Shown: piece by piece, positions 5,852 through 24,034 of the stretch
Numbering within the stretch: the first letter of the stretch is position 1
Layout: each line of letters starts with the position of its first letter
Assembly (NCBI GenBank): GCA_040383925.1
Contig: JBEICS010000001.1
Coordinates: forward strand, 1 to 27,480
Source: Acidimicrobiaceae bacterium
GTDB lineage: Bacteria > Actinomycetota > Acidimicrobiia > Acidimicrobiales > Ilumatobacteraceae
Direction: 5' to 3'
DNA length: 27,480 bases
Translations under genes and position numbers: made by a program
The notes under the pieces: model-generated
What the model was told of the DNA's origin: nothing
The model's database searches: none
What the model saw: only the letters and a program-made list of their open reading frames with translations

Positions 5852-7312
5852 GTGCCAAGTATCGATCGGAGACATGGATTGGTCGCGAGATCAGGCGACG
5901 GCGCAGGGAGCAGAGCTGCGCTCGAACATGTGGTCGAGGCTGCTGACGGATTCGGACGCGAAGCCATTGCAGCCGCTGTCGAACGCGCCGTACGTGAGGC
6001 GAGGTTCTCGGACGAACCCACCGACGCTCGTGGGCTGTTCGCCGACCTCGTGGCTCCTGGCAGGCGAGCCTTTGTACTGGTCAACCATGTCATGCATCGC
6101 CGCGACGATGAATCGCGCGACAACTTCGATGCCAAGGTCACCGACGCCGAGGTGATCGGTGCCGTCACCGATCTCGTTGCGCAGGCCACCGGTAGCCGTC
6201 GGCTGCTCGCCATCGGCAACTCACCCCTGCAGGGCTGCGATCACGCTCGTGTCGTCGAGGAGTCCGGCATGGTCGACGTGCTCGAGCGGTGGGACGGGGC
6301 CGACCGACCGGATCTGGTCGATCTGCGAGGTGTCGTGTCGACATGGAGCCGAGTGGGTGCGAAGTTGAGCGAGGAACGGCGCTCGCCCTCCGACGCGGTC
6401 GAGGTCGACCTTGGGCCACACAGCCTGCTCGAACAACTCTACGCTGGCGGCCGGATGCCCCAGTTCCGCGTAGGTGACTATGCCGCCGACGAGACCGAGA
6501 GTTACCACGCGCAGGGACGGCACGTGTACGCCGTGCACCGTCGACTGCTCGAGTCCGACCTCATTGTCAGCGTGCCCACCTTGAAGACCCACCAGAAGGT
6601 GGGTATCACCTGTGCGTTGAAGGGCACGGTCGGCGCCATCAACCTCAAGCAGTGCCTCGCCCATCACCGCCTCGGAGGCCCCGGTGAGGGGGGCGACGAG
6701 TATTCGCCCGACGGCATGTTGCGCAAGATCGCCTCACGGCTCGCCGAGCGGGCAGGGGGGCTGGGTACCGGACTGCTGGCGAACGCCGAACGGGTGGTGT
6801 CGAAGATCGCCTATCGAGGCGCCCGGTTGCCCGAGCGCTCGTTCATGGGCGGCGCCTGGAGCGGCAACGACACCGCATGGCGGATGACGCTCGACATCGC
6901 CCGCGTGCTCCGATTCGCTCGGCCCGACGGTTCGTTGGCCGACGAGCCGCAACGCCGTCACGTGGCCGTCATCGACGGGCTGATCGCTGGTGAGGGCGAG
7001 GGTCCGCTGCGACCGACCGCGCGGCACGAGGGCGTCATCATCGCGGGGACGAACCCCGTGGTGGCCGATGTGCTCGCGGCACTCGCCATGGGCTGGGATC
7101 CGCGAGCGCTGAATCTGCTCGTGAATGCCGTGGGGATCGATCAGTTCCCTGTGGTCGACATCGACGGTCTCGATGCGATGATGCTCGTCGCTGACGGCAA
7201 CGAGTTCACGATGTCGACGGCGCCGCGCCTCACCAGCAAGCCCTTCCGTCCTCCGAAGGGCTGGGCTCCTGCCGACCTGTTCCTCGGCCTCGAGGGCGGG
7301 GTATCGGTGTGA
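5852..7312 (+). CDS. DUF362 domain-containing protein
   Basis: DUF362-type motifs: VPTLKTHQKVGITCALKGTVG, VIDGLIAGEGEGP, DVLAALAMGWDP. GTGA overlap with the next gene at 7309-7312. Start position uncertain. Confidence 0.75.
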   Translation: MPSIDRRHGLVARSGDGAGSRAALEHVVEAADGFGREAIAAAVERAVREARFSDEPTDARGLFADLVAPGRRAFVLVNHVMHRRDDESRDNFDAKVTDAEVIGAVTDLVAQATGSRRLLAIGNSPLQGCDHARVVEESGMVDVLERWDGADRPDLVDLRGVVSTWSRVGAKLSEERRSPSDAVEVDLGPHSLLEQLYAGGRMPQFRVGDYAADETESYHAQGRHVYAVHRRLLESDLIVSVPTLKTHQKVGITCALKGTVGAINLKQCLAHHRLGGPGEGGDEYSPDGMLRKIASRLAERAGGLGTGLLANAERVVSKIAYRGARLPERSFMGGAWSGNDTAWRMTLDIARVLRFARPDGSLADEPQRRHVAVIDGLIAGEGEGPLRPTARHEGVIIAGTNPVVADVLAALAMGWDPRALNLLVNAVGIDQFPVVDIDGLDAMMLVADGNEFTMSTAPRLTSKPFRPPKGWAPADLFLGLEGGVSV

Positions 7313-8730
7313 GTCTGCAGGAGACGGTGTACGAGCGTTCGCCGGTGTTGGTCCAGCACGCCCTGGTGTCGATGCGCGGGGCGAACTTCCGCTTCCGGCG
7401 GTCGAACGATCGGGCCATGCGCGCAGCCTTGAGTGACCTGCTCGCTTCAGAGGCGCTGAGTGTCGACGAGCGACGCGCCCGGCGCAGTCGGGAGCTCGGC
7501 GAGTTCCTGAAGGCCGCCGTCGAATCGACGCCGTACTACCGCGAGTTGCACGCTGCGGGTCAGTTCCCTCCGGTCTGGCGCGACGACGACCCGCTGTCGG
7601 CCTTTGCGGCTGTCCCACTGCTCGACAAGGCCCGGGTTCGAGGCCATGAGGCCGACTTCTACGCGGAGGCGATCGACCCAGGGCGGACGGTGGTGGGCTT
7701 TACGAGCGGTACCACCGGCTCGCCGATGAAGATTCGGGAGACTTCGGCGTCGCTGTCGAAGCGTTTCGCGTTCGTTGCGCGCCTTCGAACGTGGGCTGGC
7801 CTGGCCGAGGTGGTCCACCCGCGCCGCGCCCAGTTCACCGGCCGGGCCATCTGCCAGGAGCGGCCACCGTTCTGGCGGCGGAACCTCGCCGACAACGCGC
7901 TCCTGTTGTCGACTGTGCACCTCTCCGAACGCGCTGCCGCAGGCTATGCCGACGCCATTGCCTCGTTCCGGCCCGTGCTGATGGACGGCTATCCGTCGGC
8001 CATGCTCGCCCTCGCCAGGCTCGCCGCGGTGCAAGGGATCGCCTTGCCGCAGGTCCCGGTTGTCATTGTCTCTGCCGAGACACTCACCCCGGAGATGCGT
8101 GCCACCATCGGGTCGGCATTCGGCGCAACGGTGTACAACCAGTACGCCGCGTCGGAACCGAGTTGCTTCTGGAGCGACTGCGAGTTCGGCAACATGCACA
8201 TCCACGAGGAGTACGGCATCTCGGAGATCCTCGACGCCTCGGGCGCCCCGGTGGCCCCCGGCGAGACCGGCGAGGTGGTGGTGACCTCACTGCTCAATCC
8301 CGCCATGCCCCTGATCCGTTACCGAACGGGCGACCTGGCTCGTCGAGGTCTCGACACGTCGTGTCCCTGCGGACGCAACCTGCCACTCGTCGCGGAGGTC
8401 CTCGGTCGCACCGACGACATCCTGTACACCCCGAGTCGCGGCTATGTCGGTCGGCTCGATCCGATCTTCAAGGGGGTCACCGGCATCATCGAGTCGCAGG
8501 TCGTCCAGGAAGATCTCCAGCACATCCGTCTGCTCGTGGTGCCCGAGCCGGGCATCTGGGGCGCTGAACCGCAGGCCAAGCTGTTGCACAACCTGCTCGC
8601 CAAGGTGGGGTCCGACCAACAGGTGACGGTGGAACTGGTCGACGAGATCCCGCGCGGCGCCAACGGGAAGTTCCGTTCGGTCATCACCAGGTGCCGCAGC
8701 GACTATCCCCTCGACCTGCAGCCCTACTGA
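7309..8730 (+). CDS. CapK-like / phenylacetate-CoA ligase family adenylate-forming enzyme
   Basis: ANL-superfamily motifs FTSGTTGSP, YAASE, PLIRYRTGD, GRTDD and NGKFRSV. N-terminus (YERSPVLVQHALVSMRG) is typical of polysaccharide-locus CapK homologues. Confidence 0.8.
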   Translation: MSLQETVYERSPVLVQHALVSMRGANFRFRRSNDRAMRAALSDLLASEALSVDERRARRSRELGEFLKAAVESTPYYRELHAAGQFPPVWRDDDPLSAFAAVPLLDKARVRGHEADFYAEAIDPGRTVVGFTSGTTGSPMKIRETSASLSKRFAFVARLRTWAGLAEVVHPRRAQFTGRAICQERPPFWRRNLADNALLLSTVHLSERAAAGYADAIASFRPVLMDGYPSAMLALARLAAVQGIALPQVPVVIVSAETLTPEMRATIGSAFGATVYNQYAASEPSCFWSDCEFGNMHIHEEYGISEILDASGAPVAPGETGEVVVTSLLNPAMPLIRYRTGDLARRGLDTSCPCGRNLPLVAEVLGRTDDILYTPSRGYVGRLDPIFKGVTGIIESQVVQEDLQHIRLLVVPEPGIWGAEPQAKLLHNLLAKVGSDQQVTVELVDEIPRGANGKFRSVITRCRSDYPLDLQPY

Positions 8731-9880: not shown

Positions 9881-9955
9881 TACGCCAGTTTCCTGGTCGG
9901 TGCTATCGCAGTGACCTGGATCGCCACGGGCGGACACCTCGAGGACGCAGTAGAG

Positions 9956-10753
9956 ATGACACCCAGAACGACTGCAGGAGAGGGCGCCACGCCGTTCGGC
10001 GACCACGCAGCAGCCCTCAGCGGTCGACATGTGATCGTGACCGGCGTCAACGGCGGGATTGGCCGCGCGGTCGCAGGTGCCTTTGCTGGTATCGGCGCCA
10101 CGATCATCGGAATGGACCGAACTCCAGAGCTTGCGAGGGAGGCGGTCGAGCATCTACCCGCCCACGGCGGGAAGCAGCACGCATCGACCGATGTCGACCT
10201 CTCAGATCCGGATGCAATCACCGCCGCTCTGACTCAAGTCAGGCGGATCTCGAAGGACATCGCTGCGCTGGTCAACGTCGCCGGTTACGCAGCCGACGCT
10301 GTGGCATTGATGGTCACGCAAGATTCACTTCGCACCCACTTCCAGGTGAACTTCAGCAGTGCTGTCCAGATCTCACAATTCGTCGCTCGCCTGATGGTCC
10401 GGACCGGTGGAGGTTCCATCGTCAGCGTTTCCAGCGTGACCGGCCTGGATGGCAACCCTGGGCAGCTGGCGTACGGTGCCTCCAAAGCCGCTCTCAACAA
10501 CTCCACCCGGATCCTTTCAATGGAGCTTGCCGCTCAAGGGGTCCGAGTGAACGCAGTCGCACCTGGTATCGTCAACACGCCCATGACACGATCACTCTCT
10601 GAGGATGCCCGTGCACGCCTCGTCGACCGTGTGGCCATGGGAAGAATGGCGGAGCCAGACGAAGTAGCGTCAGTCGTCCTCTGGCTGGCCAGCCCGGCCG
10701 CATCGTTCGTCACAGGACAAGTGGTCCGAGTCGATGGCGGGATGTCGGCGTGA
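9956..10753 (+). CDS. Classical SDR oxidoreductase (FabG-like), copy 1
   Basis: [18 protein letters not shown]...YGASK, NAVAPG. ATG 9956 has GAGGA upstream; GTG 9911 is an alternative start. Confidence 0.9.
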
Positions 10754-11508
10754 TGCCGGACCGTCTGCTTCGGGGTGAGAACATCCTGGTTACCGGTGCC
10801 AATCGCGGCATCGGTTGGGCTGTGTGTCAAGTGCTCGCAGCCAACGGCGCTAACGTGATAGCAACCAGTCGAACCATGGATCGCGAGTTCGAAGACAAAC
10901 TCGCTGAACTCGCCGCAACCCATGACGTATTCATACGCCGAGAACATCTCGCGCTTGATGACCCGCAGAGTATCAGAGCGGTGCTGGATGGCGCACGAAA
11001 GGTCGAGCCCCCGCTATCCGGTCTCGTTAACAACGCCGGGGTGACATACAACGCATTGTTTCAACTGTCCCCCATGGTTGCGGTACGGGAAGTGTTCGAA
11101 GTCAATTTCTTCGGACTTATGACTCTGATGCAGGGGGCCGCCAAATTGATGGCCCGCCACAAGCGGGGCAGCATTGTCAATATCTCCTCCACTGCAGCCA
11201 TCGATGCCAACCCAGGGCGGTCGGTGTACGGCGCCTCGAAGGCTGCCGTGCTGACCCTCAGCAAGTCCGCTGCTCGGGAACTGGCACCGTTGGGCGTGCG
11301 AGTCAACGTCGTGGCCCCTGGGTTGACGGACACAGAGATGCTCAGCAGCATGACCGACGACGTCATCGCCGAGGTCGAGGCGGCCACGGATATGGCACGG
11401 CGGGGTCGGCCGGCAGAGGTCGCAGAAGCGGTCGCTTTCCTAGTGTCACCGCTGGCTTCGTACGTCACAGGGCAAGTCATCCGGGTCGACGGGGGGTTGA
11501 GAGCGTGA
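10750..11508 (+). CDS. Classical SDR oxidoreductase (FabG-like), copy 2
   Basis: [18 protein letters not shown]...YGASK, NVVAPG. GTGA overlaps at both ends. Confidence 0.9.
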
Positions 11509-12347
11509 TCGATGCGGATGAGCAGTTGAGCGATCAGCAGGCCCTAGCGCGTCTCGCCTCGCGAGCGCGATGCTCGGTGTTGCGGCTGGGCCACGCTGCC
11601 GGAGGAACCGGAGCCCACTACGGGCCCGCTCTGTCCCTCGTCGAAGTGATGACTGCGATCTACTCCATGGCGCGTGTAGCCCCAGGTGTGGGGACGGATC
11701 TGGAGCGCGATCGGGTAATCCTGAGCAAAGGGCACGGGAGCTTGGCGCTATATACGGTGCTTCACGAATTCGGTCACATTCCGGACGATGTGCTGGAGAC
11801 CGCGGAGCTCGACGGCACCCGACTACCTGGTCAGCCGATCTGCGATCGTGAGTTAGGCATCGAGTTCTCGAGCGGCAGTCTCGGCATGGGACTTGGGTAT
11901 GGTGTGGGACTAGCGCTCTCCGCTCGGATGATGCAGTCCGGTCGCCGGATCTTTGTCGTCATGGGCGACGGTGAGACCAATGAAGGGTCCGTCTGGGAGG
12001 CCGCGATGGCCGCCACCCACTTCGGTCTTGGATCCATCACGGCAGTCATCGACGTGAATGACCTGCAGAGTGATGGAGCGACGAGCGACATCATGTCCTT
12101 TGACCATGCCGCTGGCTGGGCCGGCTTCGGCTGGGAGGTCATCGAGGTTGATGGGCATTCGATCCCGGCCCTCCAAGCGGCAATTGCTCAGAAGCCGTCC
12201 GGGCGTCCGCGGTGCATTCTCGCGCGCACCGTCAAGGGTAAGGGGATCTCCTTCATGGAGGCCGTCCCCGAGTGGCACCATGGCCGGCTCACCGAGCCTC
12301 AGTACGCCGAAGCGCACGATGAGTTGCGTGGCGGTGAGCCTCGATGA
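11505..12347 (+). CDS. Transketolase-like ThDP enzyme, N-terminal (PP-binding) subunit
   Basis: [26 protein letters not shown], ThDP motif GDGETNEG...[21 protein letters not shown]. Confidence 0.9.
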
Positions 12348-13336
12348 CAAACCTTCCCAACCCCCGCGGCCTGTCGCGATTGGGGCCGCGGGGCACGTTC
12401 GGTACTGCCTTGTTGGCCGCCGCCGAACTCAACCCCAGGGTCGTTGGTGTCACCGCTGACCTAGCTATCACGGCTGGGCTCGAGCGGTTCCGGGTGAAGT
12501 ATCCGGAGAGGCTCCTGAACGTCGGCATCGCCGAGCAAAACCTCGTGGGGATCGCCGCAGGTCTCGCAGAGGACGGATGGCAACCGTTCGCTGCGACCTT
12601 CGCCAACTTTGCAGCGATGCGCAGCAATGAATTCGTGCGACACCACCTCGGTTACATGAGGCAGAAGGTCTCAGTGGTTGGAATCGGCGCCGGATTTGCG
12701 ATGGGTCAGTTCGGCACCACCCACTACTCGCTAGAGGATGTCTCGGCGCTTCGAGCGATTCCGAACCTCACGATCCTGAGCCCCGGAGACTGCACAGAGG
12801 TGTTTCAGGCCGTGCTGGCGCTCGCCAACGATCCACAACCGTGCTATCTGCGCCTGAGTGGAGCCCCATCCATGCGACCCGTGGATCAGAGCGACACCTC
12901 CTTCCAAATCGGGAGAGCGAGGGTGCTGTCGACCGGCAGCGATGTCACCATCGTCGGCACTGGCAGCATGCTCAGCGTTGCGGCAGGTGCTGCTGGCATT
13001 TTGCAGGAGCGGGGCATCTCGGTGGGCGTGGTGAACGTCCACACAATCAAGCCGTTGGACGAAGACGCGATTCGTGGCTTGATTGGGAGCACGGGCGCAG
13101 TGGTGACGGTGGAGGAGCATTCGATCCTGGGTGGGCTCGGGGCCGCGGTGGCCGAGATCCTCTCTGCGGAAGCAGGCTCGCCACCGCTGCGCCGAATCGG
13201 CGTGCCCGACCGGTTCCCCAAAGTCGGGTCCTATGATTTCGTGCTCAAGCAGTGCGGCCTCACAGACCTGTTGGTTGCCGACGAAGTCGGGGACTGGATC
13301 AGTCGACACCGGCGCGCAGCCGCTGCCACCACTTGA
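12344..13336 (+). CDS. Transketolase-like ThDP enzyme, C-terminal (PYR + C) subunit
   Basis: NVGIAEQNLVGIAAGLA, GTTHYSLED..LRAIPNL, HTIKPLD, VTVEEHSILGGLG. ATGA overlap at 12344. Confidence 0.9.
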   Translation: MTNLPNPRGLSRLGPRGTFGTALLAAAELNPRVVGVTADLAITAGLERFRVKYPERLLNVGIAEQNLVGIAAGLAEDGWQPFAATFANFAAMRSNEFVRHHLGYMRQKVSVVGIGAGFAMGQFGTTHYSLEDVSALRAIPNLTILSPGDCTEVFQAVLALANDPQPCYLRLSGAPSMRPVDQSDTSFQIGRARVLSTGSDVTIVGTGSMLSVAAGAAGILQERGISVGVVNVHTIKPLDEDAIRGLIGSTGAVVTVEEHSILGGLGAAVAEILSAEAGSPPLRRIGVPDRFPKVGSYDFVLKQCGLTDLLVADEVGDWISRHRRAAAATT

Positions 13337-13379
13337 ACCACGTACACGCGCCGGCGCCACCGCAGGGAGAAGGAGAAAG

Positions 13380-13625
13380 ATGACCAACGAAGAAGCTCTC
13401 AAGAAGGCCTTCTGTGAGGGACTAGGGGTCAACGAGGACGAGATTGATTGGGGTACCCTTCAATACCGTGGAATCGAACAATGGGACTCTGTGGCTCACA
13501 TGCAGGTGGTGGCTGAGATTGAAGATGCCTTTGACATCATGATGGACATCGATGACGTGATTGCCATGTCAGACTTCAAGGCCACCAAAGAGATCCTTCA
13601 GAAGTATGACGTGAGATTTCCCTGA
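13380..13625 (+). CDS. Acyl carrier protein
   Basis: 81 aa, acidic. WDSVAHM contains the phosphopantetheine Ser. Strong SD AGGAGA before ATG 13380; the ORF track's longer start (13131) overlaps the upstream gene. Confidence 0.9.
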   Translation: MTNEEALKKAFCEGLGVNEDEIDWGTLQYRGIEQWDSVAHMQVVAEIEDAFDIMMDIDDVIAMSDFKATKEILQKYDVRFP

Positions 13626-13626
13626 C

Positions 13627-15003
13627 ATGCTTCTGGATGGTCGCGCCGGAACGGACATCATCCTCATCGAGGCCTCGTCTGGCGCCACCATCACCGTCAA
13701 CGACGTACGGGTCAGAGCGACTGAGGTCGCTGGAGGGGTCTCGTCGCTCACCTTCCTGGTTGCCGATGCCTCTATCGACTCGTGGCTCACGGGTCTCGCC
13801 CTGCTTGAGGCTCGCTCGGCCTTCGCCTTGATCGACCCCAGCATGGGCCACGCCGCAATGCTTGCACTCGTCGAGCGTTACCAGCCTGACCGGATTATCG
13901 ATCCGGCGGGCGCGCTGGTCACCGGCGGCAGGGAGTGGAGCCGGGGGCGCCTCGCCACCAGGACCCACCCTGACTTGGCAGTCCTCCTGACGACATCGGG
14001 CACCACTGGCAGTCCTCGATTCGTACGGCTCTCCTCTGACAACATAGTTTGCAATGCTCGCCAAATCGCCCAGGCGCTCTCTCTCAGTCCAGATGACCGT
14101 TCGGTGACGACGATGCCGCTCGTCTATTCGTTCGGACTCTCGCTGCTCACGTCGCATGCAGTCTCGGGTGGTGCGCTGATCGTCACCGACCGCAGCGTGA
14201 TTGAGTCCGGCTTCTGGGAGGACATCGATCGTTACCGCGTAACCACGATGGCTGGCGTGCCTGTGACCTACAAGATGCTTCGACGCCTCGGCTTCGCCGA
14301 CCGCGCGCCCTCGGTGCGCACAATGATCCAGGCTGGCGGCCGCCTCGACTCGGAACTGATCTCGCACTTCCACGACATCATGGAGGCGCGAGACGGGCGA
14401 TTCTTTGTGATGTACGGCCAGACGGAGGCCTCGCCGCGGATATCGGTGCTTCCACATTCGATGCTTCCCGCCAAACTTGGCTCTGTCGGCCTTCCATTGG
14501 CCGGTGGCCGTTTGTTCATCCTTGATGCTGACGATCGCGAGGTCCCGGAGATGACACGGGGCCGCGTCATGTACCAAGGCCCGAACGTCATGATGGGCTA
14601 TGCCGATAGCTCGGATGACGTTGCGCTCGGCGACGTGTACGGCGATGTTCTCGACACAGGTGACGAGGGCTACCTTGACGAGGACGGTTGCCTCTACATC
14701 TCAGGTCGCACGAAGCGAATCTGCAAGCTTTCAGGAGTTCGAATCTCGCTGGAGGAGGTCGAGTCGATGGCATCTGTTCTGGTCCCCGAGGCTGCCGACG
14801 TGGCCGCCTACAGCCCTGGAGACGATACTCTCGTCTTGGTGGTCGAAGGCGCGCGAATCGGTGACGATGAGGTTCGTCGGACGATTGCGAACAGGCTGAA
14901 GGTCCCACCGAAGTTGGTCACGGTCTGCGCTCGAGAGTCTTTGCCTCGACTCGCCAACGGCAAGATCGACTACAGGACCCTGCAGTCGGAGCACGACACG
15001 TGA
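13627..15003 (+). CDS. Stand-alone AMP-forming acyl-CoA/acyl-ACP ligase (ANL family)
   Basis: LLTTSGTTGSPR (P-loop), YGQTEA, DTGD, ISGRTKR, LANGKID (catalytic Lys). Confidence 0.85.
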   Translation: MLLDGRAGTDIILIEASSGATITVNDVRVRATEVAGGVSSLTFLVADASIDSWLTGLALLEARSAFALIDPSMGHAAMLALVERYQPDRIIDPAGALVTGGREWSRGRLATRTHPDLAVLLTTSGTTGSPRFVRLSSDNIVCNARQIAQALSLSPDDRSVTTMPLVYSFGLSLLTSHAVSGGALIVTDRSVIESGFWEDIDRYRVTTMAGVPVTYKMLRRLGFADRAPSVRTMIQAGGRLDSELISHFHDIMEARDGRFFVMYGQTEASPRISVLPHSMLPAKLGSVGLPLAGGRLFILDADDREVPEMTRGRVMYQGPNVMMGYADSSDDVALGDVYGDVLDTGDEGYLDEDGCLYISGRTKRICKLSGVRISLEEVESMASVLVPEAADVAAYSPGDDTLVLVVEGARIGDDEVRRTIANRLKVPPKLVTVCARESLPRLANGKIDYRTLQSEHDT

Positions 15004-16106
15004 GCGTCCATGCCGAGCAGGTAATGGCTGAACTCTTTGAGCGGCCCCAGTTCAGCATCGACCAGGACGAGAAGACGCATCTGATTGCAGCAGAGATGTC
15101 TCGGCTGGTGCGACACCACCGCTTCAACTGCGAATCGTATGACCGCATTTGCCGGGTGCTTGCCGTACCGGATCGTTTCGAGCATCTCGCTGAAGTGCCC
15201 TACTTGCCGGTGTCTCTGTTCAAGACTCACGAGTTGCGGAGCGTGCCAGCCGAGGACGTCTTCAAGATCATGACGTCAAGTGGTACGACAGGTCAAGCGG
15301 TGTCGAAAGTCAGCCTTGATCGCGAGACAGCAACCCTACAGTCCAAGGCCCTGAGCCGAATCATGAGACGCATCATCGGTGACCAACGGTTGCCGATGAT
15401 TATCATTGACACTCCTAATGTCATCAAGGACCGCAAGATGTTCTCAGCGCGCGGTGCCGGAATACTTGGCATGAAGCCATTCGGACGCGACCACTTCTTC
15501 GCCCTGGACGACGAAATGAGACTAGATACGGCTGGCCTCCAAACATTTCTTCGCGAGCGCAAGCCCGGACCGGTGCTCATCTTCGGATTCACGTTCATGG
15601 TGTGGAAGTACTTCCTCAACGCCCTCGCCGACGCGGGATCCACTGTGGACTTGTCAGGCGGCCTGCTCGTGCATTCAGGTGGTTGGAAGAAGCTGGTAGA
15701 TGAAGCGGTAGGAAACACCGAGTTCAAACACACTGCCGCCGAACTCACTGGGATCACACGGGTGCATAACTTTTACGGAATGGTTGAGCAGGTTGGCTCG
15801 GTCTTCCTCGAGGGGGATGACGGTTTTCTCTATCCACCGAACTTCGCTGACGTGATCATTCGCGACCCGCAGACCTGGCTTCCTGCCCAGGATGGCGACA
15901 TCGGCGTGGTCGAAGTGCTGAGCGTCCTGCCACGTTCTTACCCCGGACACGCAATCCTTACCGAGGACCTTGGGATCATCCACGGGGTTGGCGCCGCGGC
16001 AAGCGGCTGGGCGGGCAAGAAGTTAGAGATCATCGGCCGCGTGCCGCGCAGCGAGTTGCGGGGCTGCTCAGACACCCACGCTTTCGAAACCACCCGACCG
16101 GCATGA
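15000..16106 (+). CDS. luxE: LuxE-like acyl-protein synthetase
   Basis: TSSGTTG, HSGGWKK, FYGMVEQ, ILTEDLG, and C-terminal GRVPRSELRGC with a Cys where LuxE is acylated. Family-level call, not bioluminescence. Confidence 0.85.
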   Translation: MSVHAEQVMAELFERPQFSIDQDEKTHLIAAEMSRLVRHHRFNCESYDRICRVLAVPDRFEHLAEVPYLPVSLFKTHELRSVPAEDVFKIMTSSGTTGQAVSKVSLDRETATLQSKALSRIMRRIIGDQRLPMIIIDTPNVIKDRKMFSARGAGILGMKPFGRDHFFALDDEMRLDTAGLQTFLRERKPGPVLIFGFTFMVWKYFLNALADAGSTVDLSGGLLVHSGGWKKLVDEAVGNTEFKHTAAELTGITRVHNFYGMVEQVGSVFLEGDDGFLYPPNFADVIIRDPQTWLPAQDGDIGVVEVLSVLPRSYPGHAILTEDLGIIHGVGAAASGWAGKKLEIIGRVPRSELRGCSDTHAFETTRPA

Positions 16107-17326
16107 CCACAGTCACCCAGCTTGTCCCTGAGCCGTGCGCCGTGGATCTCAATGACCTCCTTGCGCGATTGACGAGCGCAGCGGCCGTGCCACCGTTCGA
16201 CTCGTCTCGGCAAGAGTTCGTGAGTGACCTGGCTCGACGATTGGGTCGCCGTTCTGCTTCGCATCCCGAGTCGCGGGCACTGGCTTACTGGATGCGCAGG
16301 GCCGAGATCACGCGAATGGCCGCTGCGTTTGCCGAGCTGGGAAGCGCACAATTGGTCCTGCAACCGCGTGGAACAGTCTTCCATGTCCCGCCGGCGAACG
16401 TGGATACGATCTTCGTGTACTCGTGGGCCATCTCGGTCCTTCTCGGCAATCGCAACATCGTGCGGATGTCCAGCCGCGCCACACATCAGTCGAATCTCAT
16501 CTTGGATGTGATCAATGAGGTCTTAGCGGACCACCCTGGCGTGGCGATGTCGAATGCGATGATCACCTACGGCCATGACGATGCAATCACTGCAACAGTG
16601 TCCCAGCGCTGTGACACCAGGGTGATCTGGGGTGGTGACGCGACCGTCAACCGCATTCGGGCAGTTGCGCTGCCGCCGCATGCCACGGAGCTTGCCTTCG
16701 CGGACCGGTTCTCCTTCGCTGCGATCTCTACAGCTGCGTACTTGGCCCTTGACAACGCAGGGCGGGATTCCCTGGCGGAGCGCTTCTTCAACGACACCTA
16801 TTTCTTCGATCAGATGGGGTGCTCGTCCGCTCGATTGCTGGTCTGGGTGGGCGCCCCCACTAGTGCGGATCACGACTTCAGGCAGCGGCTTCGTTCAATC
16901 GTCCGCAAGAAGGGTTACGACGTCCCCGCCGCCGTCGCCATCTCGAAACTGGCTCAGGCCTACAGCGGGATGATTGAGGGCGGCGCGGTCGCTGTCGACG
17001 TCCGTGACAACGCGCTCACCCTCCTTAGCGTGGAACGCTTCCCGCACACTAGAGGGCAGTTCTGCGGAGGCGGCTTTCTCTACGAACTTCAAGTTGAGAA
17101 TCTCGGTGACATCGCTGCCGACATTCGCCGTGCGGACCAGACACTCGCAGTGTTCGGCATTCCCCACGCCGAACTGCGGGACTTCGTCGACCGTCTCGCC
17201 GGACGCGGCGTTGACCGTATCGTGCCGATAGGGAGCGCACTAGAGTTCAGTCGCTACTGGGATGGATACGACCTGTTCGCCGAGTTCACCCGGAAGGTGA
17301 CAATCGATTCAGGAGGACTGCTGTGA
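16103..17326 (+). CDS. luxC: LuxC-like acyl-CoA/acyl-protein reductase
   Basis: PRGTVFHVPPANV, RNIVRMSS, IWGGDAT, FDQMGCSS (catalytic Cys motif), GVDRIVPIG...WDG. Family-level call. Confidence 0.85.
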   Translation: MTTVTQLVPEPCAVDLNDLLARLTSAAAVPPFDSSRQEFVSDLARRLGRRSASHPESRALAYWMRRAEITRMAAAFAELGSAQLVLQPRGTVFHVPPANVDTIFVYSWAISVLLGNRNIVRMSSRATHQSNLILDVINEVLADHPGVAMSNAMITYGHDDAITATVSQRCDTRVIWGGDATVNRIRAVALPPHATELAFADRFSFAAISTAAYLALDNAGRDSLAERFFNDTYFFDQMGCSSARLLVWVGAPTSADHDFRQRLRSIVRKKGYDVPAAVAISKLAQAYSGMIEGGAVAVDVRDNALTLLSVERFPHTRGQFCGGGFLYELQVENLGDIAADIRRADQTLAVFGIPHAELRDFVDRLAGRGVDRIVPIGSALEFSRYWDGYDLFAEFTRKVTIDSGGLL

Positions 17327-17994
17327 CGCCGGAGGTCGCCATCATCGGTGGCGGGGGCTACGGGCGCGAGGTACTGGAATACGCCGACGATGCTCGAGCT
17401 CACGGATGGAGTTTCCGAACGGTCGGGTTCTATGACGATGACGCCACTGTGCGAGACGGCTACTCGGGTGAGCACCCCGTTCTCGGCCCTCTCACGGCCA
17501 TAGCGCATTCATCCATACAGCACTTTGTCATTGCGCTCGGTTCCCCCGAGACACGCCGAATGGCCTCCGATCTGGTGTTCGAGGCAGGCAAGCACCTCGT
17601 GTCCCTGGTACATCCCCGCGCGTACGTCTCGCGATCTGCCTCGATCGGTGCCGGCACGATCGTGTGCCCCTTTGGCATGATCGGTGCGAACTCGACTGTT
17701 GGACGCAACGTATCGGTGAACGTCTACGGCTCAATTGGGCACGATTCGATCATCGGGCGTGACGTCGTGGTGTCGCCGTACGCAGCCATCACTGGCACGG
17801 TGAACGTCGGGGATGAGTCTTTCCTTGGCACTCATACCACCATCACGCCTGGAGTCAGCATCGGCAGCCACTCGAAGGTGCATGCTGGCTCGGTGGTGAT
17901 TCGCAGCGCCCCACCGGGCTCCCTGCTTGTAGGCGCGCCGGCGAAGGGTCGCGTGATTTTCAGAGTCCCCGATGTTCCCGCGAGCCAGCGATGA
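17323..17994 (+). CDS. NeuD/PglD-family hexapeptide-repeat sugar N/O-acyltransferase
   Basis: N-terminal IIGGGGYGREV, LVHPRAYVS, left-handed beta-helix repeats (ASIGAG, TVGRNV, SIIGRD), GHD His motif, GAPAK tail. Confidence 0.85.
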   Translation: MTPEVAIIGGGGYGREVLEYADDARAHGWSFRTVGFYDDDATVRDGYSGEHPVLGPLTAIAHSSIQHFVIALGSPETRRMASDLVFEAGKHLVSLVHPRAYVSRSASIGAGTIVCPFGMIGANSTVGRNVSVNVYGSIGHDSIIGRDVVVSPYAAITGTVNVGDESFLGTHTTITPGVSIGSHSKVHAGSVVIRSAPPGSLLVGAPAKGRVIFRVPDVPASQR

Positions 17995-18332
17995 TCAGCG
18001 ATCTCGGGGTCGGAGTCGATGTCGAGCTTGTAGGTCGTTTCACTGACCCTGACCCTCGCTTATTCACCGAGAATGAGTTGGCGCTCTGCGAGGCCGCCGG
18101 GAACCCAGCGGAAAGCCGAGCAGGTCGCTGGTGCGCCAAGGAGGCCGTGGTCAAGGCGGTGGCACGTCACGTGCTGTTGAGTCCACGGGATGTTGAGATC
18201 CTTGCCGATCAGGCAGGCCGTCCGGTGGTGCACTGGCTGCGCCCACAGCTCGACCACGTCCGCTGCGACGTCTCGATCACGCACGGGGGAGAGATCGCAG
18301 CTGCGATCGCTGCCGCCTGGCAGGTGTCGTGA
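17991..18332 (+). CDS. acpS: AcpS-type 4'-phosphopantetheinyl transferase
   Basis: GVGVDVE, LFTENE, AGRWCAKEAVVKA, VSITH; 113 aa; ATGA overlap. Confidence 0.85.
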   Translation: MISDLGVGVDVELVGRFTDPDPRLFTENELALCEAAGNPAESRAGRWCAKEAVVKAVARHVLLSPRDVEILADQAGRPVVHWLRPQLDHVRCDVSITHGGEIAAAIAAAWQVS

Positions 18333-19755: not shown

Positions 19756-19919
19756 CCGACGGCCGAACAAGCGGCTGACGTATCGAGGGGAGATTGACGC
19801 AGGGCCTTGATCGCTCTTGTCCAAGTGAGGCTCGACCCCGTAGGTTGCCTCTGGGATGCTCGTTGTCGGACCGGCAACGAGGTAGCCAAGGCTCGCTTTC
19901 TTGGCAAGGAGTGCCATCG

Positions 19920-20981
19920 ATGACTGACTCACCCGAGGTCGCTCGCATCCTCGTCACCAGCATCGGCTCGTTGGTGGGACGAGGCATCCTCGACGTCCTG
20001 GTCGGCCGCCGACAGGGCCTGCACCTCGTCGGCGGCGATGCCGATCCTGCCTCGCCTGCGTTCGCCGAATGCGACGAGTGGGTTCATCTTCCGGCCAGCA
20101 CCGACCCCGACTTCGTGCCGGCGGTCGAGCAGGCGTGCCGTCGATTCGACGTCGAACTGGTGCTTCCCGGACGCGACCCCGATGTGTTGGCCCTGGCGGC
20201 AGCCAACGACGACCCGGCCAGCCCGGTGACGGGCCCCTTCGCACCGGCGGCACTGGTGACGGCGACACGCGACAAGTGGGAGACGGCACATCTCTGTGCG
20301 CGCCTCGGGGTTCCGTTCGCTCCGACCGTGTGCACCGACGAACCGCTTGCGGCTGAACAGGCAGCCGAGTTGGTTCACGAGTGGGGGTTCCCACTCATAG
20401 CGAAGCCTCGTCGCGGCAGCGGTTCGCTCGGTGTGCGGGTGCTGCTCGACCACGGCCACCTCGACGCGTGTCTCGCCCTCGCCGACTACATCGTGCAGCC
20501 GTTCCTCGATCCACCGAGCGCTGCGTCACTGGCGATCGAGGCATCGAAGGGCGTGCCGCTGTTCTGGGAGGTGCCCGTGATCGACACCCCGGCGGTGATG
20601 GCGGTGATCGAACCCGACGGCGAGGTGCGGGGGCCGGTGTGCTGTGCCGTGACGCAGCGTCTCGGACGGGTCGAGGATGTCCGACTCGTCACCGACGAGT
20701 CCATGACCGAGTTCGCCACCGCTGCGGTGCACCGGTTCCGCGAGGCCGGATGGCGAGGTCCGCTGAATCTTCCGCTGCGGCCAGGGCCGACGGGGTGGTA
20801 CGTCATCGAGATCAACCCTCGGTTCACGGGGAGCACGTCGAGCCGTCTCCATCTCGGCTTCGACGAGGTCGGGCTCACCATCAATGCCTGGACGGGTCGA
20901 ACCGTCGTTCCGCCGGTGACGGCACCACCCGTGTCGAGGGTGCGGCGCATCCTGCACGACTTCCCGGTCAGACCGGCCTGA
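19920..20981 (+). CDS. ATP-grasp ligase (PylC / carbamoyl-phosphate-synthase-like; resembles the type found in Neisseria PglB2)
   Basis: Pre-grasp Rossmann segment (ILVTSIGSLVG...VGGDAD), RDKWET, PLIAKPRRGSGSLGV, IVQPFL, VIEINPRF. SD AAGGAG before ATG 19920. Confidence 0.8.
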   Translation: MTDSPEVARILVTSIGSLVGRGILDVLVGRRQGLHLVGGDADPASPAFAECDEWVHLPASTDPDFVPAVEQACRRFDVELVLPGRDPDVLALAAANDDPASPVTGPFAPAALVTATRDKWETAHLCARLGVPFAPTVCTDEPLAAEQAAELVHEWGFPLIAKPRRGSGSLGVRVLLDHGHLDACLALADYIVQPFLDPPSAASLAIEASKGVPLFWEVPVIDTPAVMAVIEPDGEVRGPVCCAVTQRLGRVEDVRLVTDESMTEFATAAVHRFREAGWRGPLNLPLRPGPTGWYVIEINPRFTGSTSSRLHLGFDEVGLTINAWTGRTVVPPVTAPPVSRVRRILHDFPVRPA

Positions 20982-20997
20982 GCAGCATCGCAACGCC

Positions 20998-21585
20998 TCA
21001 GTCGACGCCGAACTCGGGCATCGTGGCATGCCCCTCGGCGGAGACGCCGTCACGTCGCACCACCGCCCGGATGGTCTTCCAGATGATCTGGAGATCGAGC
21101 CGCATGGTTCGGTGATCGACGTACCACACGTCGAGGTCGAACCGCTCGTCCCACGTGGTGGCGTTCCTGCCGTTCACCTGCGCCCAACCGGTGAGGCCGG
21201 GCCGCACCTCGTGGCGACGGGCCTGATGCGCGCTGTAGCGCGGGAGGTAGGCCATCAACAGCGGGCGAGGGCCGACCAGCGACATGTCGCCGCGCACGAT
21301 GTTCCACAGCTCGGGCAGCTCGTCGAGGCTGGTGGAACGAAGGAGACGTCCGAACGAGGTGAGTCGCTCGGCATCCGGCAGCAAGTGGCCGTCGGGGCCA
21401 GTGGCCGAGGTCATCGTGCGGAACTTGTACATCGTGAACGGCCGAGCATTCCGGCCGGGCCGCTGCTGGGTGAACAGAACCGGCCGGCCGAGTTTCAGCG
21501 CGACCAGTACTGCGAGCACGGCGATGAGCGGGCTGAGAACGACCAGCGCCACAGCGCTGGCGACGATGTCGAACAGCCGCTTCAC
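20998..21585 (-). CDS. pglC: Monotopic phosphoglycosyl transferase (PglC / Bac_transf family), initiating sugar transferase
   Basis: KRLFDIV, GRPVLFTQQRPG...MYKFRTM, SLDELP (Asp-Glu dyad), GDMSLVGPRP, RPGLTGWAQVNGRN. Confidence 0.9.
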   Translation of the reverse strand: MKRLFDIVASAVALVVLSPLIAVLAVLVALKLGRPVLFTQQRPGRNARPFTMYKFRTMTSATGPDGHLLPDAERLTSFGRLLRSTSLDELPELWNIVRGDMSLVGPRPLLMAYLPRYSAHQARRHEVRPGLTGWAQVNGRNATTWDERFDLDVWYVDHRTMRLDLQIIWKTIRAVVRRDGVSAEGHATMPEFGVD

Positions 21586-21589
21586 CAGG

Positions 21590-22723
<1,134 letters not shown>

Positions 22724-22725
22724 CG

Positions 22726-23991
22726 TCAGAGGTGCTCGACGTTGGCCGCTGCGGCGAGTCGGTGCCGGGCGTCGAACACGTAGGCTGCCTCGGCGGCGAT
22801 GCGCTGGAAGTCGATGGAGTCATGGTCGGTGAGCACGACGACCGCGTCGTACGCGGCGACATCGGAGCTGGCGAGATCGACCAGGGTGACGTGGTCGAGA
22901 CCTCGAGGTGCTGCATCGAGATACGGATCGACCGCCTCGACGACGGCACCGAGTTCACCCAGCAGTTCGGCCACGCGCACGGCAGGAGACTCGCGGGCGT
23001 CGCTGCTGTTCTTCTTGTAGGCGAGGCCGAGCAGCAAGATGCGCGAGCCGCGAACCGACTTGCACCGATCGTTCAACGCGAGGGTGAGGCGCGACACCGT
23101 GTAGTCGGGCATGTGCTCGTTCACATCGTTGGCCAGTTCGACGAAGCGGAACTGGTGCCCGAGGCTCTGCTTCACGCGCCACGACAGATAGCTCGGGTCG
23201 ATGGGCAGGCAGTGGCCGCCCACGCCGGGCCCGGGGGTGAACTTCATGAAGCCGAACGGCTTCGTGGCGGCGGCATCGATGGCATCCCACACGTCGATGT
23301 CGAGTTGCTTGGCAAAGACAGCAAGCTCGTTGACCAGAGCGATGTTCACGTGCCGGAACGTGTTCTCCAGCAACTTGGTGAGTTCGGCCTCCTTGCAGCC
23401 CTTCACCGGGACGACCCGCTCGACGATCGATCCGTAGAACGCGGCCACCGCATCGCGCGATGCCTCGTCGATACCGGCGACCACCTTGGGAGTGTTGTCG
23501 AAGTGCCACGTCGGGTTACCCGGGTCGATGCGCTCGGGCGAGTAGCCCACCTGGAAGTCGGCGCCGGCCTTCAGGCCGCTGCCCGCCTCGAGGATGGGCA
23601 CCATCAACTCTTCGGTGGTACCCGGATAGGTGGTGGACTCGAGCACCACGAGCACGCCGGGCCGGACGTACGGCGCCAGGTTCGCGGCAGCGGTCTCGAT
23701 GTACGACAGATCGGGGGCCGCCTCGCGTAGCGGTGTGGGCACCGTGATGACGGCCACGTCGAAGCCGGCAGCGGCAGCCGGGTCGGTGCTGGCGCTGTAA
23801 CGGCCGGTGGCCAGCGCAGCCTGCAGTTCCGTGTCGGACACGTCTTCCACGAACGAGTCGCCCGTCTGGAGGCGCTCGATGCGCCGTGGGTCGTTGTCGA
23901 GACCCACCACGCGGTAGCCCATCTGCACGGCGCGCATGGCGATGGGAAGGCCGACATAGCCCTGGCCGACGATCAGTACCTGACGTGTCAC
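22726..23991 (-). CDS. UDP-N-acetylhexosamine 6-dehydrogenase (WbpA/WbpO/TviB/WecC/CapL family)
   Basis: GQGYVG, ITVPTP, ESTTYPGTTEE, YSPERIDPGN, KLLENTFRHVNIALVNE, GGHCLPIDP (catalytic Cys), LGLAYK...RESP. GAGGAG precedes GTG 23991. Confidence 0.92.
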   Translation of the reverse strand: MTRQVLIVGQGYVGLPIAMRAVQMGYRVVGLDNDPRRIERLQTGDSFVEDVSDTELQAALATGRYSASTDPAAAAGFDVAVITVPTPLREAAPDLSYIETAAANLAPYVRPGVLVVLESTTYPGTTEELMVPILEAGSGLKAGADFQVGYSPERIDPGNPTWHFDNTPKVVAGIDEASRDAVAAFYGSIVERVVPVKGCKEAELTKLLENTFRHVNIALVNELAVFAKQLDIDVWDAIDAAATKPFGFMKFTPGPGVGGHCLPIDPSYLSWRVKQSLGHQFRFVELANDVNEHMPDYTVSRLTLALNDRCKSVRGSRILLLGLAYKKNSSDARESPAVRVAELLGELGAVVEAVDPYLDAAPRGLDHVTLVDLASSDVAAYDAVVVLTDHDSIDFQRIAAEAAYVFDARHRLAAAANVEHL

Positions 23992-24034
23992 TGGGGTGCT
24001 CCTCGGAACGAGAACGGGGGAGTGGTGGCGATGC

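Follow-up and report, generated by a model that had tools for sequence, protein, structure and literature searches.

Aeromonas group II polar flagellin glycosylation islands carry orf1-3, luxE, and luxC, which represent the five families treated here as a core: an acyl carrier protein (ACP), a short-chain dehydrogenase/reductase (SDR), an adenylating ligase, LuxE, and LuxC (PMC7874193). Enterobacterial flagellin islands carry the corresponding Acp, CaiC, FabG, LuxE, and LuxC genes (PMC4875605). Both accounts assign the core genes to fatty acid synthesis and suggest a liposugar, and a transketolase is mentioned in neither (PMC7874193, PMC4875605). In Vibrio cholerae, the O1 antigen is a tetronate-acylated perosamine (PMC6479008), and its formation needs wbeN, a LuxC/LuxE fusion located next to an iron alcohol dehydrogenase (PMC9915646). 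Here, we analyze a ten-gene cassette that joins all five of these families to a split transketolase and lies among glycan genes in contig JBEICS010000001.1 of an Acidimicrobiaceae bacterium (assembly GCA_040383925.1). The stretch studied, referred to as the window, comprises positions 1 to 27,480; the source contig is 27.5 kb and belongs to a metagenome-assembled genome (MAG) that is 63% complete and whose RpoB shares 86 to 93% identity with that of Acidimicrobiia/Ilumatobacteraceae-type MAGs.

Two further pathways bear on this comparison. In azinomycin biosynthesis, N-acetyl-glutamate is phosphorylated, reduced to the 5-semialdehyde, extended by two carbons through the split transketolase AziC5/C6, and then transaminated, and a version tethered to a carrier protein has been proposed for vazabitide (PMC9570651). 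In Flavobacterium psychrophilum, a PglD homologue is predicted to move a 3,5-dihydroxyhexanoyl group from a locus-specific ACP to UDP-Qui2NAc4N (PMC6519341).

We read the ten genes of the window as an acyl-donor factory, in which a small hydroxylated acyl group would be built on the operon's own ACP and attached to an amino sugar, and we give this reading a probability of roughly 0.55. Judged by sequence comparison, the cassette is the transketolase-bearing form of a widespread, known but unsolved acyl cassette and is not unique to this genome. Its genes, all in one direction between 9956 and 18332 on the plus strand, are as follows, with Pfam and NCBIfam matches in parentheses.

9956-10753 (+): SDR1, a FabG-like SDR (Pfam adh_short_C2, 1.5e-56)
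10750-11508 (+): SDR2, a FabG-like SDR (Pfam adh_short_C2, 5.2e-57)
11505-12347 (+): TK-N, transketolase-like N-terminal subunit with the thiamine diphosphate (ThDP)/PP domain (PF00456, 1.9e-33)
12344-13336 (+): TK-C, transketolase-like C-terminal subunit with Pyr and C domains (PF02779, Transket_pyr; PF02780, Transketolase_C)
13380-13625 (+): dedicated ACP of 81 aa (PF00550, 22.4 bits against a cut-off of 20.8; NF002150 match)
13627-15003 (+): ANL-superfamily adenylating (AMP-binding) ligase, presumed acid:ACP ligase (PF00501, 2e-42)
15000-16106 (+): LuxE-type acyl-protein synthetase (PF04443, 1.6e-48, 166 bits)
16103-17326 (+): LuxC-type acyl-thioester reductase, aldehyde forming (PF05893, 1.8e-28, 100 bits)
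17323-17994 (+): NeuD/PglB/VioB-family left-handed beta-helix hexapeptide N-acyltransferase (TIGR03570, 172.2 bits against a cut-off of 160.8; PglD_N, PF17836; Hexapep, PF00132)
17991-18332 (+): AcpS-type 4'-phosphopantetheinyl transferase (PPTase) (PF01648, 4.3e-16; TIGR00556, 52.1 bits against a cut-off of 45.35)

These ten genes form a real, well-preserved operon. A preliminary description, made from the letters alone, had named the ten families in this order and given their junctions, and Pfam and NCBIfam recover every one of the families. The junctions likewise agree, with seven 4-nt start/stop overlaps (at 10750, 11505, 12344, 15000, 16103, 17323, and 17991) and two gaps that flank the ACP gene, one of 43 nt on its 5' side, which holds a strong ribosome-binding site (GGAGAAGGAGAAAG), and one of 1 nt on its 3' side. 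The first open reading frame (ORF) opens with a GTG at 9911, and the ATG at 9956 agrees with the starts of SDR1 homologues. About 240 nt of noncoding DNA lie upstream of the cassette, and a convergent GT4 gene lies downstream. Simple promoter and terminator scans at both operon ends found neither element, and an Rfam scan of the window returned no RNA family, including no ThDP riboswitch.

LuxE provides the handle for tracing this operon in other genomes. Homologues of LuxE are very numerous, 50 to 80% identical across many phyla, and a scan of species-representative genomes with the protein gave 80 loci from many phyla (48 to 70% identity), to which the window proteins were compared by tblastn and blastp. 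The five-gene core, ACP-SDR-ligase-LuxE-LuxC, is present in all 55 of the LuxE loci that have full 10-kb flanks, and these also span many phyla. The window holds the five core families on one strand, with the SDRs upstream of the ACP and the transketolase pair between. SDR2 is the nearer match to the core's single SDR, being the best match at 36 to 46% identity in most of the 80 loci, and SDR1, with orthologues of 55 to 59% identity at the same position in four loci (L003, L004, L007, and L082), is the extra reductase of the transketolase form.

The split transketolase itself occurs in 4 of the 80 loci, from Thiodictyon (L003), Dormibacteraeota (L004), Actinomycetota (L007), and Acidobacteriaceae (L027). 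All ten genes also occur, in unchanged order, on a metagenome contig (L082), where DegT, Bac_transf, and a second PglD-like gene lie next to them. Since the same set recurs in the same order in L082 and in the Thiodictyon, Dormibacteraeota, and Actinomycetota MAGs, it is more than a chance assembly. A search with TK-C extends the family to about 70 clusters with identities of at least 58%; a second clade comes next, at close to 50%, and in it all four sampled contexts have TK-N and TK-C beside ligase-LuxE-LuxC. Several relatives are flagellar neighbors: the Lelliottia locus adjoins a gene for a FliA-like sigma factor, that of Paraburkholderia adjoins flagellin, FliT, and TPR-GT41 genes, and that of Magnetovibrio (L096) adjoins fliF/fliG. 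In a Synergistaceae MAG (L097), the transketolase again lies beside ligase-LuxE-LuxC, in a region that ends at the contig end. Counting all transketolase-bearing loci examined, ligase-LuxE-LuxC adjoins the transketolase in 12 of 12.

The Paraburkholderia (L095:299-9978) and Magnetovibrio (L096:992-9972) loci share an order of their own, ACP-ligase-LuxE-LuxC-FabA-like dehydratase-GMC oxidoreductase-small protein-SDR-TK-N-TK-C, with a PglD-like gene 5' of the ACP in L095 only. The extra tailoring enzymes of these two loci point to a more elaborate acyl chain.

The history of the transketolase genes is apparent from the LuxE tree, on which the transketolase-positive loci need five changes, at least four of them forced by supported branches. 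Among them, L027 is sister to the near-identical transketolase-negative loci L032 and L037, which argues that the add-on acts on the product of the core. From these comparisons, the transketolase set is a swap-in addition to the core, and the ten-gene set is recurrent and modular. The preliminary description's ten-gene set thus stands insofar as it recurs intact in L082, but it is not one evolutionary unit; it combines a core with an exchangeable SDR/transketolase set and an acyltransferase, and sometimes with an AcpS. AcpS lies beside the cassette in only 8 of the 80 loci (six Actinomycetota, one Chloroflexota, and one Thiodictyon), which may mean that the housekeeping PPTase of those lineages does not serve the unusual ACP.

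Horizontal acquisition of the cassette is probable, because its G+C (guanine plus cytosine) fraction is low (0.57 to 0.63 over window positions 10001 to 18000 versus 0.64 to 0.71 in the remainder of the contig), just 2 of the 60 further genomes sampled within the family of the source MAG have a LuxE homologue, and the nearest LuxE relatives on the tree are from other phyla, Pseudomonadota and Dormibacterota. A comparison of TK-C with plasmid proteins returned only ordinary split transketolases of about 44% identity and a Streptomyces azinomycin-type cluster, and the Lelliottia cassette DNA had no match in complete Escherichia coli genomes.

What the transketolase pair might do is suggested by its active site. 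The nearest solved relative of both halves is the split transketolase of C. hydrogenoformans (6YAK for TK-N, 2.4e-55; 6YAJ for TK-C, 6.1e-62), and TK-C, at 330 aa, has Pyr and C domains only. The incomplete MAG yielded no canonical transketolase for internal reference; residues were aligned to a canonical enzyme from a genome of the same order (L086), with E. coli numbering placed through motif context. The pair keeps the GDGE...N ThDP/Mg motif and the equivalents of His26, His66, His261, Glu411 (in GIAEQN), His473, and Arg358. Replaced are Asp469, by Phe, and His461 and Arg520, both by Gly, together with His100, which is Gln in this clade. The canonical L086 enzyme has Arg358, Ser385, His461, Asp469, and Arg520, and the 6YAJ/6YAK alignment keeps the His461, Asp469, and Arg520 equivalents. 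Among 120 relatives of TK-C, position 469 is Phe in 114 and Leu, Tyr, or Met in the rest; position 461 is Gly, Ala, or Ser in all 120, and position 520 is Gly in all 120.

Transketolases recognize the 2-hydroxyl of an acceptor aldose through Asp469 and bind the sugar phosphate with His461 and Arg520 as well as Arg358 and Ser385. Because the equivalents of Asp469, His461, and Arg520 are replaced across the family, these enzymes probably use a nonphosphorylated acceptor aldehyde that lacks a 2-hydroxyl. The canonical phosphate and acceptor set (Arg358, Ser385, His461, Arg520, and Asp469) is incomplete in the pair, with Arg358 kept, and the two halves score 207.8 and 209.3 bits, below the cut-off of 488, against the canonical transketolase equivalog NF004559.

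A transketolase from an azinomycin/vazabitide-type cluster on the Streptomyces parvulus plasmid pSPA1 (L099:5613-16418) can be set beside this family. That cluster holds a RimK/LysX-like ligase, a small carrier-like protein, DegT, TK-N, TK-C, GNAT, ArgC, ArgB, M20 hydrolases, and a nonribosomal peptide synthetase (NRPS). Its transketolase is 42% identical to the window enzyme, which is 27% identical to canonical transketolase, and it has an aromatic Tyr at the Asp469 position. The usual partners of AziC5/C6 are absent from the window: neither the kinase and reductase of ArgB/ArgC type, nor a carrier of LysW/LysX type or N-acetyltransferase, nor the aminotransferase of that cluster context is there. 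At 42% identity, the resemblance to AziC5/C6 would be one of mechanism, and by analogy AziC5/C6 is the closest biochemical precedent, giving the chemical logic of the cassette a published analogue. The preliminary description had looked instead to the quinocarcin and naphthyridinomycin pathways, a poorer fit in that NapD/DinS are 754 aa long and the window has no such partner.

The remaining proteins of the cassette can be taken in turn. The ACP passes the Pfam PP-binding model narrowly and is further supported by its W-D-S-V/I-A/G-H-M serine motif, invariant in 75 homologues; together with AcpS it bears out the earlier claim that the cassette carries its own carrier protein and the enzyme to activate it. 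Oxalyl-CoA synthetases are the best solved relatives of the ligase, and MenE and malonyl-CoA synthetase rank high as well. These relatives activate the carboxylates of diacids (oxalate, malonate, and o-succinylbenzoate), a weak hint that the cassette ligase may likewise take a diacid. In LuxE, the cysteine of a C-terminal RGCS aligns with the KGCS cysteine near the C terminus of Photobacterium phosphoreum LuxE (7XC6), and in LuxC the cysteine of FFDQMGCSS aligns with that of FYDQQACFS in the LuxC of the same structure; we take these to be the acylated and the catalytic residue, respectively.

The acyltransferase links this chemistry to an amino sugar. Its best solved relatives, VioB (7TXP), PerB, the PglB acetyltransferase domain (PglB-ATD), and PglD, are all N-acyltransferases of 4-amino-4,6-dideoxy sugars, in keeping with the amino-sugar N-acylation foreseen in the preliminary description, and it keeps a histidine at the VioB position that is presumably catalytic. 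An acyl-ACP donor is inferred from the gene context. Downstream of the cassette, on the minus strand, lie four genes that are likely to make the acceptor sugar or act on it, among them PglF-, PglE-, and PglC-like genes. The earlier view of the cassette as one coherent unit that stands within a glycan locus and is self-contained in building an acyl group is supported.

20998-21585 (-): PglC-like Bac_transf (PF02397, 2.3e-65)
21590-22723 (-): DegT/PglE-like aminotransferase (PF01041, 1.5e-95)
22726-24114 (-): UDP-sugar dehydrogenase (PF03721/PF00984/PF03720)
24035-25867 (-): PglF-like 4,6-dehydratase (PF02719, 2.9e-100)

The cassette acyltransferase is the sole PglD-family gene found in the window. 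The PglC-like and GT4 genes are separated by an ATP-grasp gene with a PylC-like N domain, which runs on the other strand (19794-20981, +). Upstream of the cassette are Wzy_C-domain proteins, a DUF362/ANL pair, and an epimerase. One of these, a 917-aa ORF (1564-4317, +), has its Wzy_C (O-antigen ligase/polymerase) domain at residues 700 to 838 only. At 5852-8730 (+), the genes for a DUF362 protein and a weak AMP-binding (CapK-like) protein show translational coupling; the latter is another adenylating enzyme in the locus, unrelated to the cassette, and by tblastn the pair had no match in any of the 80 LuxE loci.

A glycan setting recurs around the transketolase form. All eight of the transketolase loci first tallied carry an adjacent DegT and/or PglD-like gene, so that homologous cassettes of this form do not lie mostly outside polysaccharide loci, the finding that the preliminary description had named as counting against it. 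Two loci added later have neither gene, one in a flagellar region (L096) and one whose region ends at the contig end (L097).

From these parts, a pathway can be proposed. AcpS would turn apo-ACP into holo-ACP, and the ANL ligase would load a small diacid onto it as a thioester through one of the two carboxylates, with malate, succinate, malonate, or an oxo-diacid as possible substrates. A dicarboxylate is the simplest account of the substrate because two adenylating enzymes, the ligase and LuxE, share one ACP. LuxE would then adenylate the free distal carboxylate and pass the acyl group via its C-terminal cysteine to LuxC, where an NAD(P)H-dependent reduction would yield an aldehyde. Loci with only the five core genes would use their one SDR to turn this aldehyde into an omega-hydroxyacyl-ACP, in parallel with the route proposed for the 2,4-dihydroxybutanoyl (tetronate) group of V. 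cholerae O1. In the transketolase form, the pair would take the aldehyde as acceptor and add a two-carbon ketol unit, as AziC5/C6 does with glutamate semialdehyde, and the SDRs would reduce the keto group or groups to give a polyhydroxy acyl-ACP two carbons longer. The PglF- and PglE-like enzymes would supply a UDP-4-amino-4,6-dideoxy-HexNAc, to whose N-4 the NeuD/PglD-type enzyme would move this acyl group, and the PglC-like enzyme would then begin glycan assembly. Relative to azinomycin, the cassette would exchange the kinase and reductase for LuxE/LuxC and the aminotransferase for SDRs, with a glycan as the destination.

The more specific proposal, that the transketolase pair performs a non-Claisen, ThDP-dependent C2 extension on an aldehyde tethered to a phosphopantetheinyl carrier and so yields sugar-acid-like polyhydroxy acyl chains (deoxy-hexonoyl, for example) as N-acyl decorations of surface glycans and flagellin sugars in many phyla, is tentative, and we would sooner bet against it than for it. 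A supporting lead for the product of the core comes from Aeromonas AH-3, which carries the core and has a pseudaminic acid derivative (the linking sugar) of 376.14 Da as well as an unknown moiety of 102 Da (PMC7874193). By our own arithmetic, as opposed to any published assignment, exchanging one acetyl of Pse5Ac7Ac (316.13 Da) for a C4H6O3 dihydroxybutanoyl group would give a mass of 376.15 Da, and C4H6O3 amounts to 102.03 Da; two hydroxypropanoyl groups fit the 376-Da mass equally well. The masses would tie the core to a tetronate-like product.

Several points weigh against the reading of the cassette as an acyl-donor factory for an amino sugar. A glycan-type neighbor is detectable by tblastn with the window proteins in only 32 of the 55 core loci, and DegT or NeuD-like genes are detectable in 27 of the 55. 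On a Bryobacterales chromosome (L024:6249-13229), no amino-sugar gene lies within 10 kb of the core, which is accompanied only by a polysaccharide-deacetylase-like gene on its upstream side and a more distant GNAT. Many loci of acidobacteria show this pattern, and the core may therefore serve nonglycan acceptors there. The PglD-family enzymes characterized so far use, to our knowledge, acyl-CoA and not acyl-ACP. The window's ATP-grasp gene could form a different, second amide on the same sugar, as the PglB2-type ATP-grasp of Neisseria reportedly does. With respect to the transketolase, the Streptomyces plasmid enzyme keeps His461 and Arg520, unlike the cassette family, which places the two in separate subfamilies. 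The His100 position varies, with Gln in this clade and His in others, and blurs donor recognition, and a predicted complex of ACP with TK-N and TK-C scored 0.07 where the mark is 0.34, which gives no verdict either way. The chemistry may run on free acids instead of the ACP, and we can only guess at the starting acid, the C2 donor, and the product. Finally, the searched literature held no biochemical study of either the core or the transketolase form.

The alternative that fares best keeps the acyl-ACP and changes its destination: the acyl group would go to another amino sugar, a uronic acid-linked amine, or a nonglycan molecule, and the ATP-grasp or some other enzyme would acylate the PglE product. 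The position of the ATP-grasp gene between the PglC-like and GT4 genes, the second PglD-like gene beside DegT and Bac_transf in L082, and the acidobacterial cores with no clear amino-sugar genes all lend themselves to this explanation. We consider it unlikely given that the cassette acyltransferase has no PglD-family rival in the window, that 4-amino-4,6-dideoxy sugars are the substrates of all its best structural relatives, and that a DegT or PglD-like gene accompanies the transketolase loci first tallied.

A liposugar, the interpretation given to homologous genes in two comparative genomics papers (PMC7874193, PMC4875605), would have ACP, ligase, FabG, LuxE, and LuxC handling medium- or long-chain fatty acids and placing a fatty acyl or aldehyde-derived group on the glycan. 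LuxE and LuxC do take their names from the fatty acid reductase of luminous bacteria, and the ligase also matches long-chain ligase models of NCBIfam, with lower scores. However, the cassette LuxE and LuxC fall far below the cut-offs of the bioluminescence equivalogs (80.7 versus 550 for NF052244 and 49.1 versus 750 for NF052251, respectively), the best solved relatives of the ligase are short-diacid ligases, the Aeromonas masses of 376 and 102 Da leave no space for a long chain, and the analogous V. cholerae genes are linked to a hydroxy acid of four carbons. Comparison of the window proteins with the 80 loci by tblastn gave no cassette families past the core, though families for chain building were not directly searched for. 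We therefore doubt a fatty acyl product. Fatty acid synthesis was rejected as a candidate because ketosynthase, dehydratase, and enoyl reductase genes make up 0 of the 10 cassette genes.

Direct loading of a two-carbon unit appears similarly doubtful. Here, the transketolase pair would move C2 from a ketose phosphate to the ACP, giving glycolyl-ACP, with LuxE, LuxC, and the ligase serving a separate purpose. The transketolase genes do lie directly 5' of the ACP gene, and there is a precedent in the two-component transketolases NapB/NapD and DinS/DinU, which are reported to make a hydroxyethyl unit from xylulose 5-phosphate for an ACP (PMC7570522). Against this, the window pair has no lipoyl/E2-type or extra domain, TK-C measuring 330 aa against the much longer DinS/NapD. 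The naphthyridinomycin/quinocarcin route reportedly hands its unit on through a lipoyl E2-type carrier. The loss of the phosphate-binding His461 and Arg520 equivalents in all 120 relatives disfavors the usual binding of a ketose phosphate, and in the 12 loci the transketolase never occurs apart from ligase-LuxE-LuxC, being gained or lost atop a core that works in its absence. A naphthyridinomycin-type route was rejected on the absence of the long NapD/DinS-type partner.

ThDP-dependent C2 branching of keto-sugars is known (YerE and the E1-like pairs of avilamycin-type pathways). A C2 branch placed by the ThDP enzyme on the PglF 4-keto-6-deoxy sugar nucleotide, as for yersiniose-type sugars, with the ACP arm making an ordinary hydroxyacyl group, has in its favor the 4,6-dehydratase of the window that would make such a 4-keto sugar, and is nevertheless the least probable explanation, since the transketolase genes are embedded, with translational coupling, in the acyl arm (SDRs on one side, ACP on the other), travel with ligase-LuxE-LuxC whether a polysaccharide locus or a flagellin island adjoins, and encode a hydrophobic Asp-to-Phe replacement at the acceptor site that would be surprising in a nucleotide-sugar pocket.

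Many bacterial surface glycans and flagellin sugars bear unidentified non-acetyl N-acyl groups that affect antigenicity and phage/host recognition, and the genes for such groups have so far been dismissed as "fatty-acid-like." With the cassette, its active-site signature, and the AziC5/C6 precedent, an imprecise annotation becomes a pathway that can be tested through the mass shifts it predicts. If the acyl-donor model is true, glycans of transketolase-positive and transketolase-negative sister strains would differ by +60.02 Da for a reduced glycolaldehyde extension or by +44.03 Da for a reduced acetaldehyde unit. Solving one tractable carrier would annotate thousands of loci and could give biocatalysis a ThDP carboligase that accepts unphosphorylated, nonhydroxylated aldehydes. 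If extension on an ACP-tethered aldehyde is also true, it would represent a new route to acyl side chains, from diacid through semialdehyde to ketol extension, and a new class of transketolase substrate.

How the cassette stands among described systems can now be summarized. It shares its five core families with the flagellin glycosylation islands, LuxE being highly conserved, and the function is uncharacterized in both; related transketolase-bearing forms occur in flagellar regions of Lelliottia, Paraburkholderia, and Magnetovibrio. In contrast to those islands, it lies in a polysaccharide-type locus of an Acidimicrobiia MAG, has its SDR upstream of the ACP, and adds an extra SDR, the split transketolase, an acyltransferase, and AcpS. 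The wbe genes of V. cholerae O1, linked to the 3-deoxy-L-glycero-tetronyl group on perosamine, parallel the core in gene content, and we assume that the wbeK-wbeO (rfbKLMNO) locus also has an ACP and a ligase. They differ in that LuxC and LuxE are fused, an iron alcohol dehydrogenase replaces the SDR, and there is no transketolase or second SDR. With LuxCDE of luminous bacteria, the cassette shares the LuxE and LuxC folds and the cysteines aligned to 7XC6, but it is only a remote relative (E = 0.0035 for LuxC), neither LuxD nor a luciferase family was found among the window ORFs, and the substrate is probably a short polar acid.

The wfpC-wfpG genes of F. psychrophilum resemble the cassette in pairing a locus-specific ACP with a PglD homologue predicted to N-acylate a PglF/PglE product with a hydroxylated acyl group, and the vio genes of Pseudomonas syringae are presumably a similar case. 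There, however, the chain is built through Claisen chemistry by ketosynthases and a ketoreductase, whereas the cassette has no ketosynthase and diacid reduction followed by ThDP carboligation is proposed. For the transketolase step, the likeness to AziC5/C6 lies in the two-carbon extension, by a split transketolase, of an aldehyde obtained by carboxylate activation and reduction, possibly on a carrier. The azinomycin/DADH (diamino-dihydroxy-heptanoate) route differs in using a kinase and an ArgC-type reductase rather than LuxE/LuxC and a LysW-like carrier rather than a phosphopantetheinyl ACP, and its ketone is transaminated, not reduced, with the product going to an NRPS and not to a glycan.

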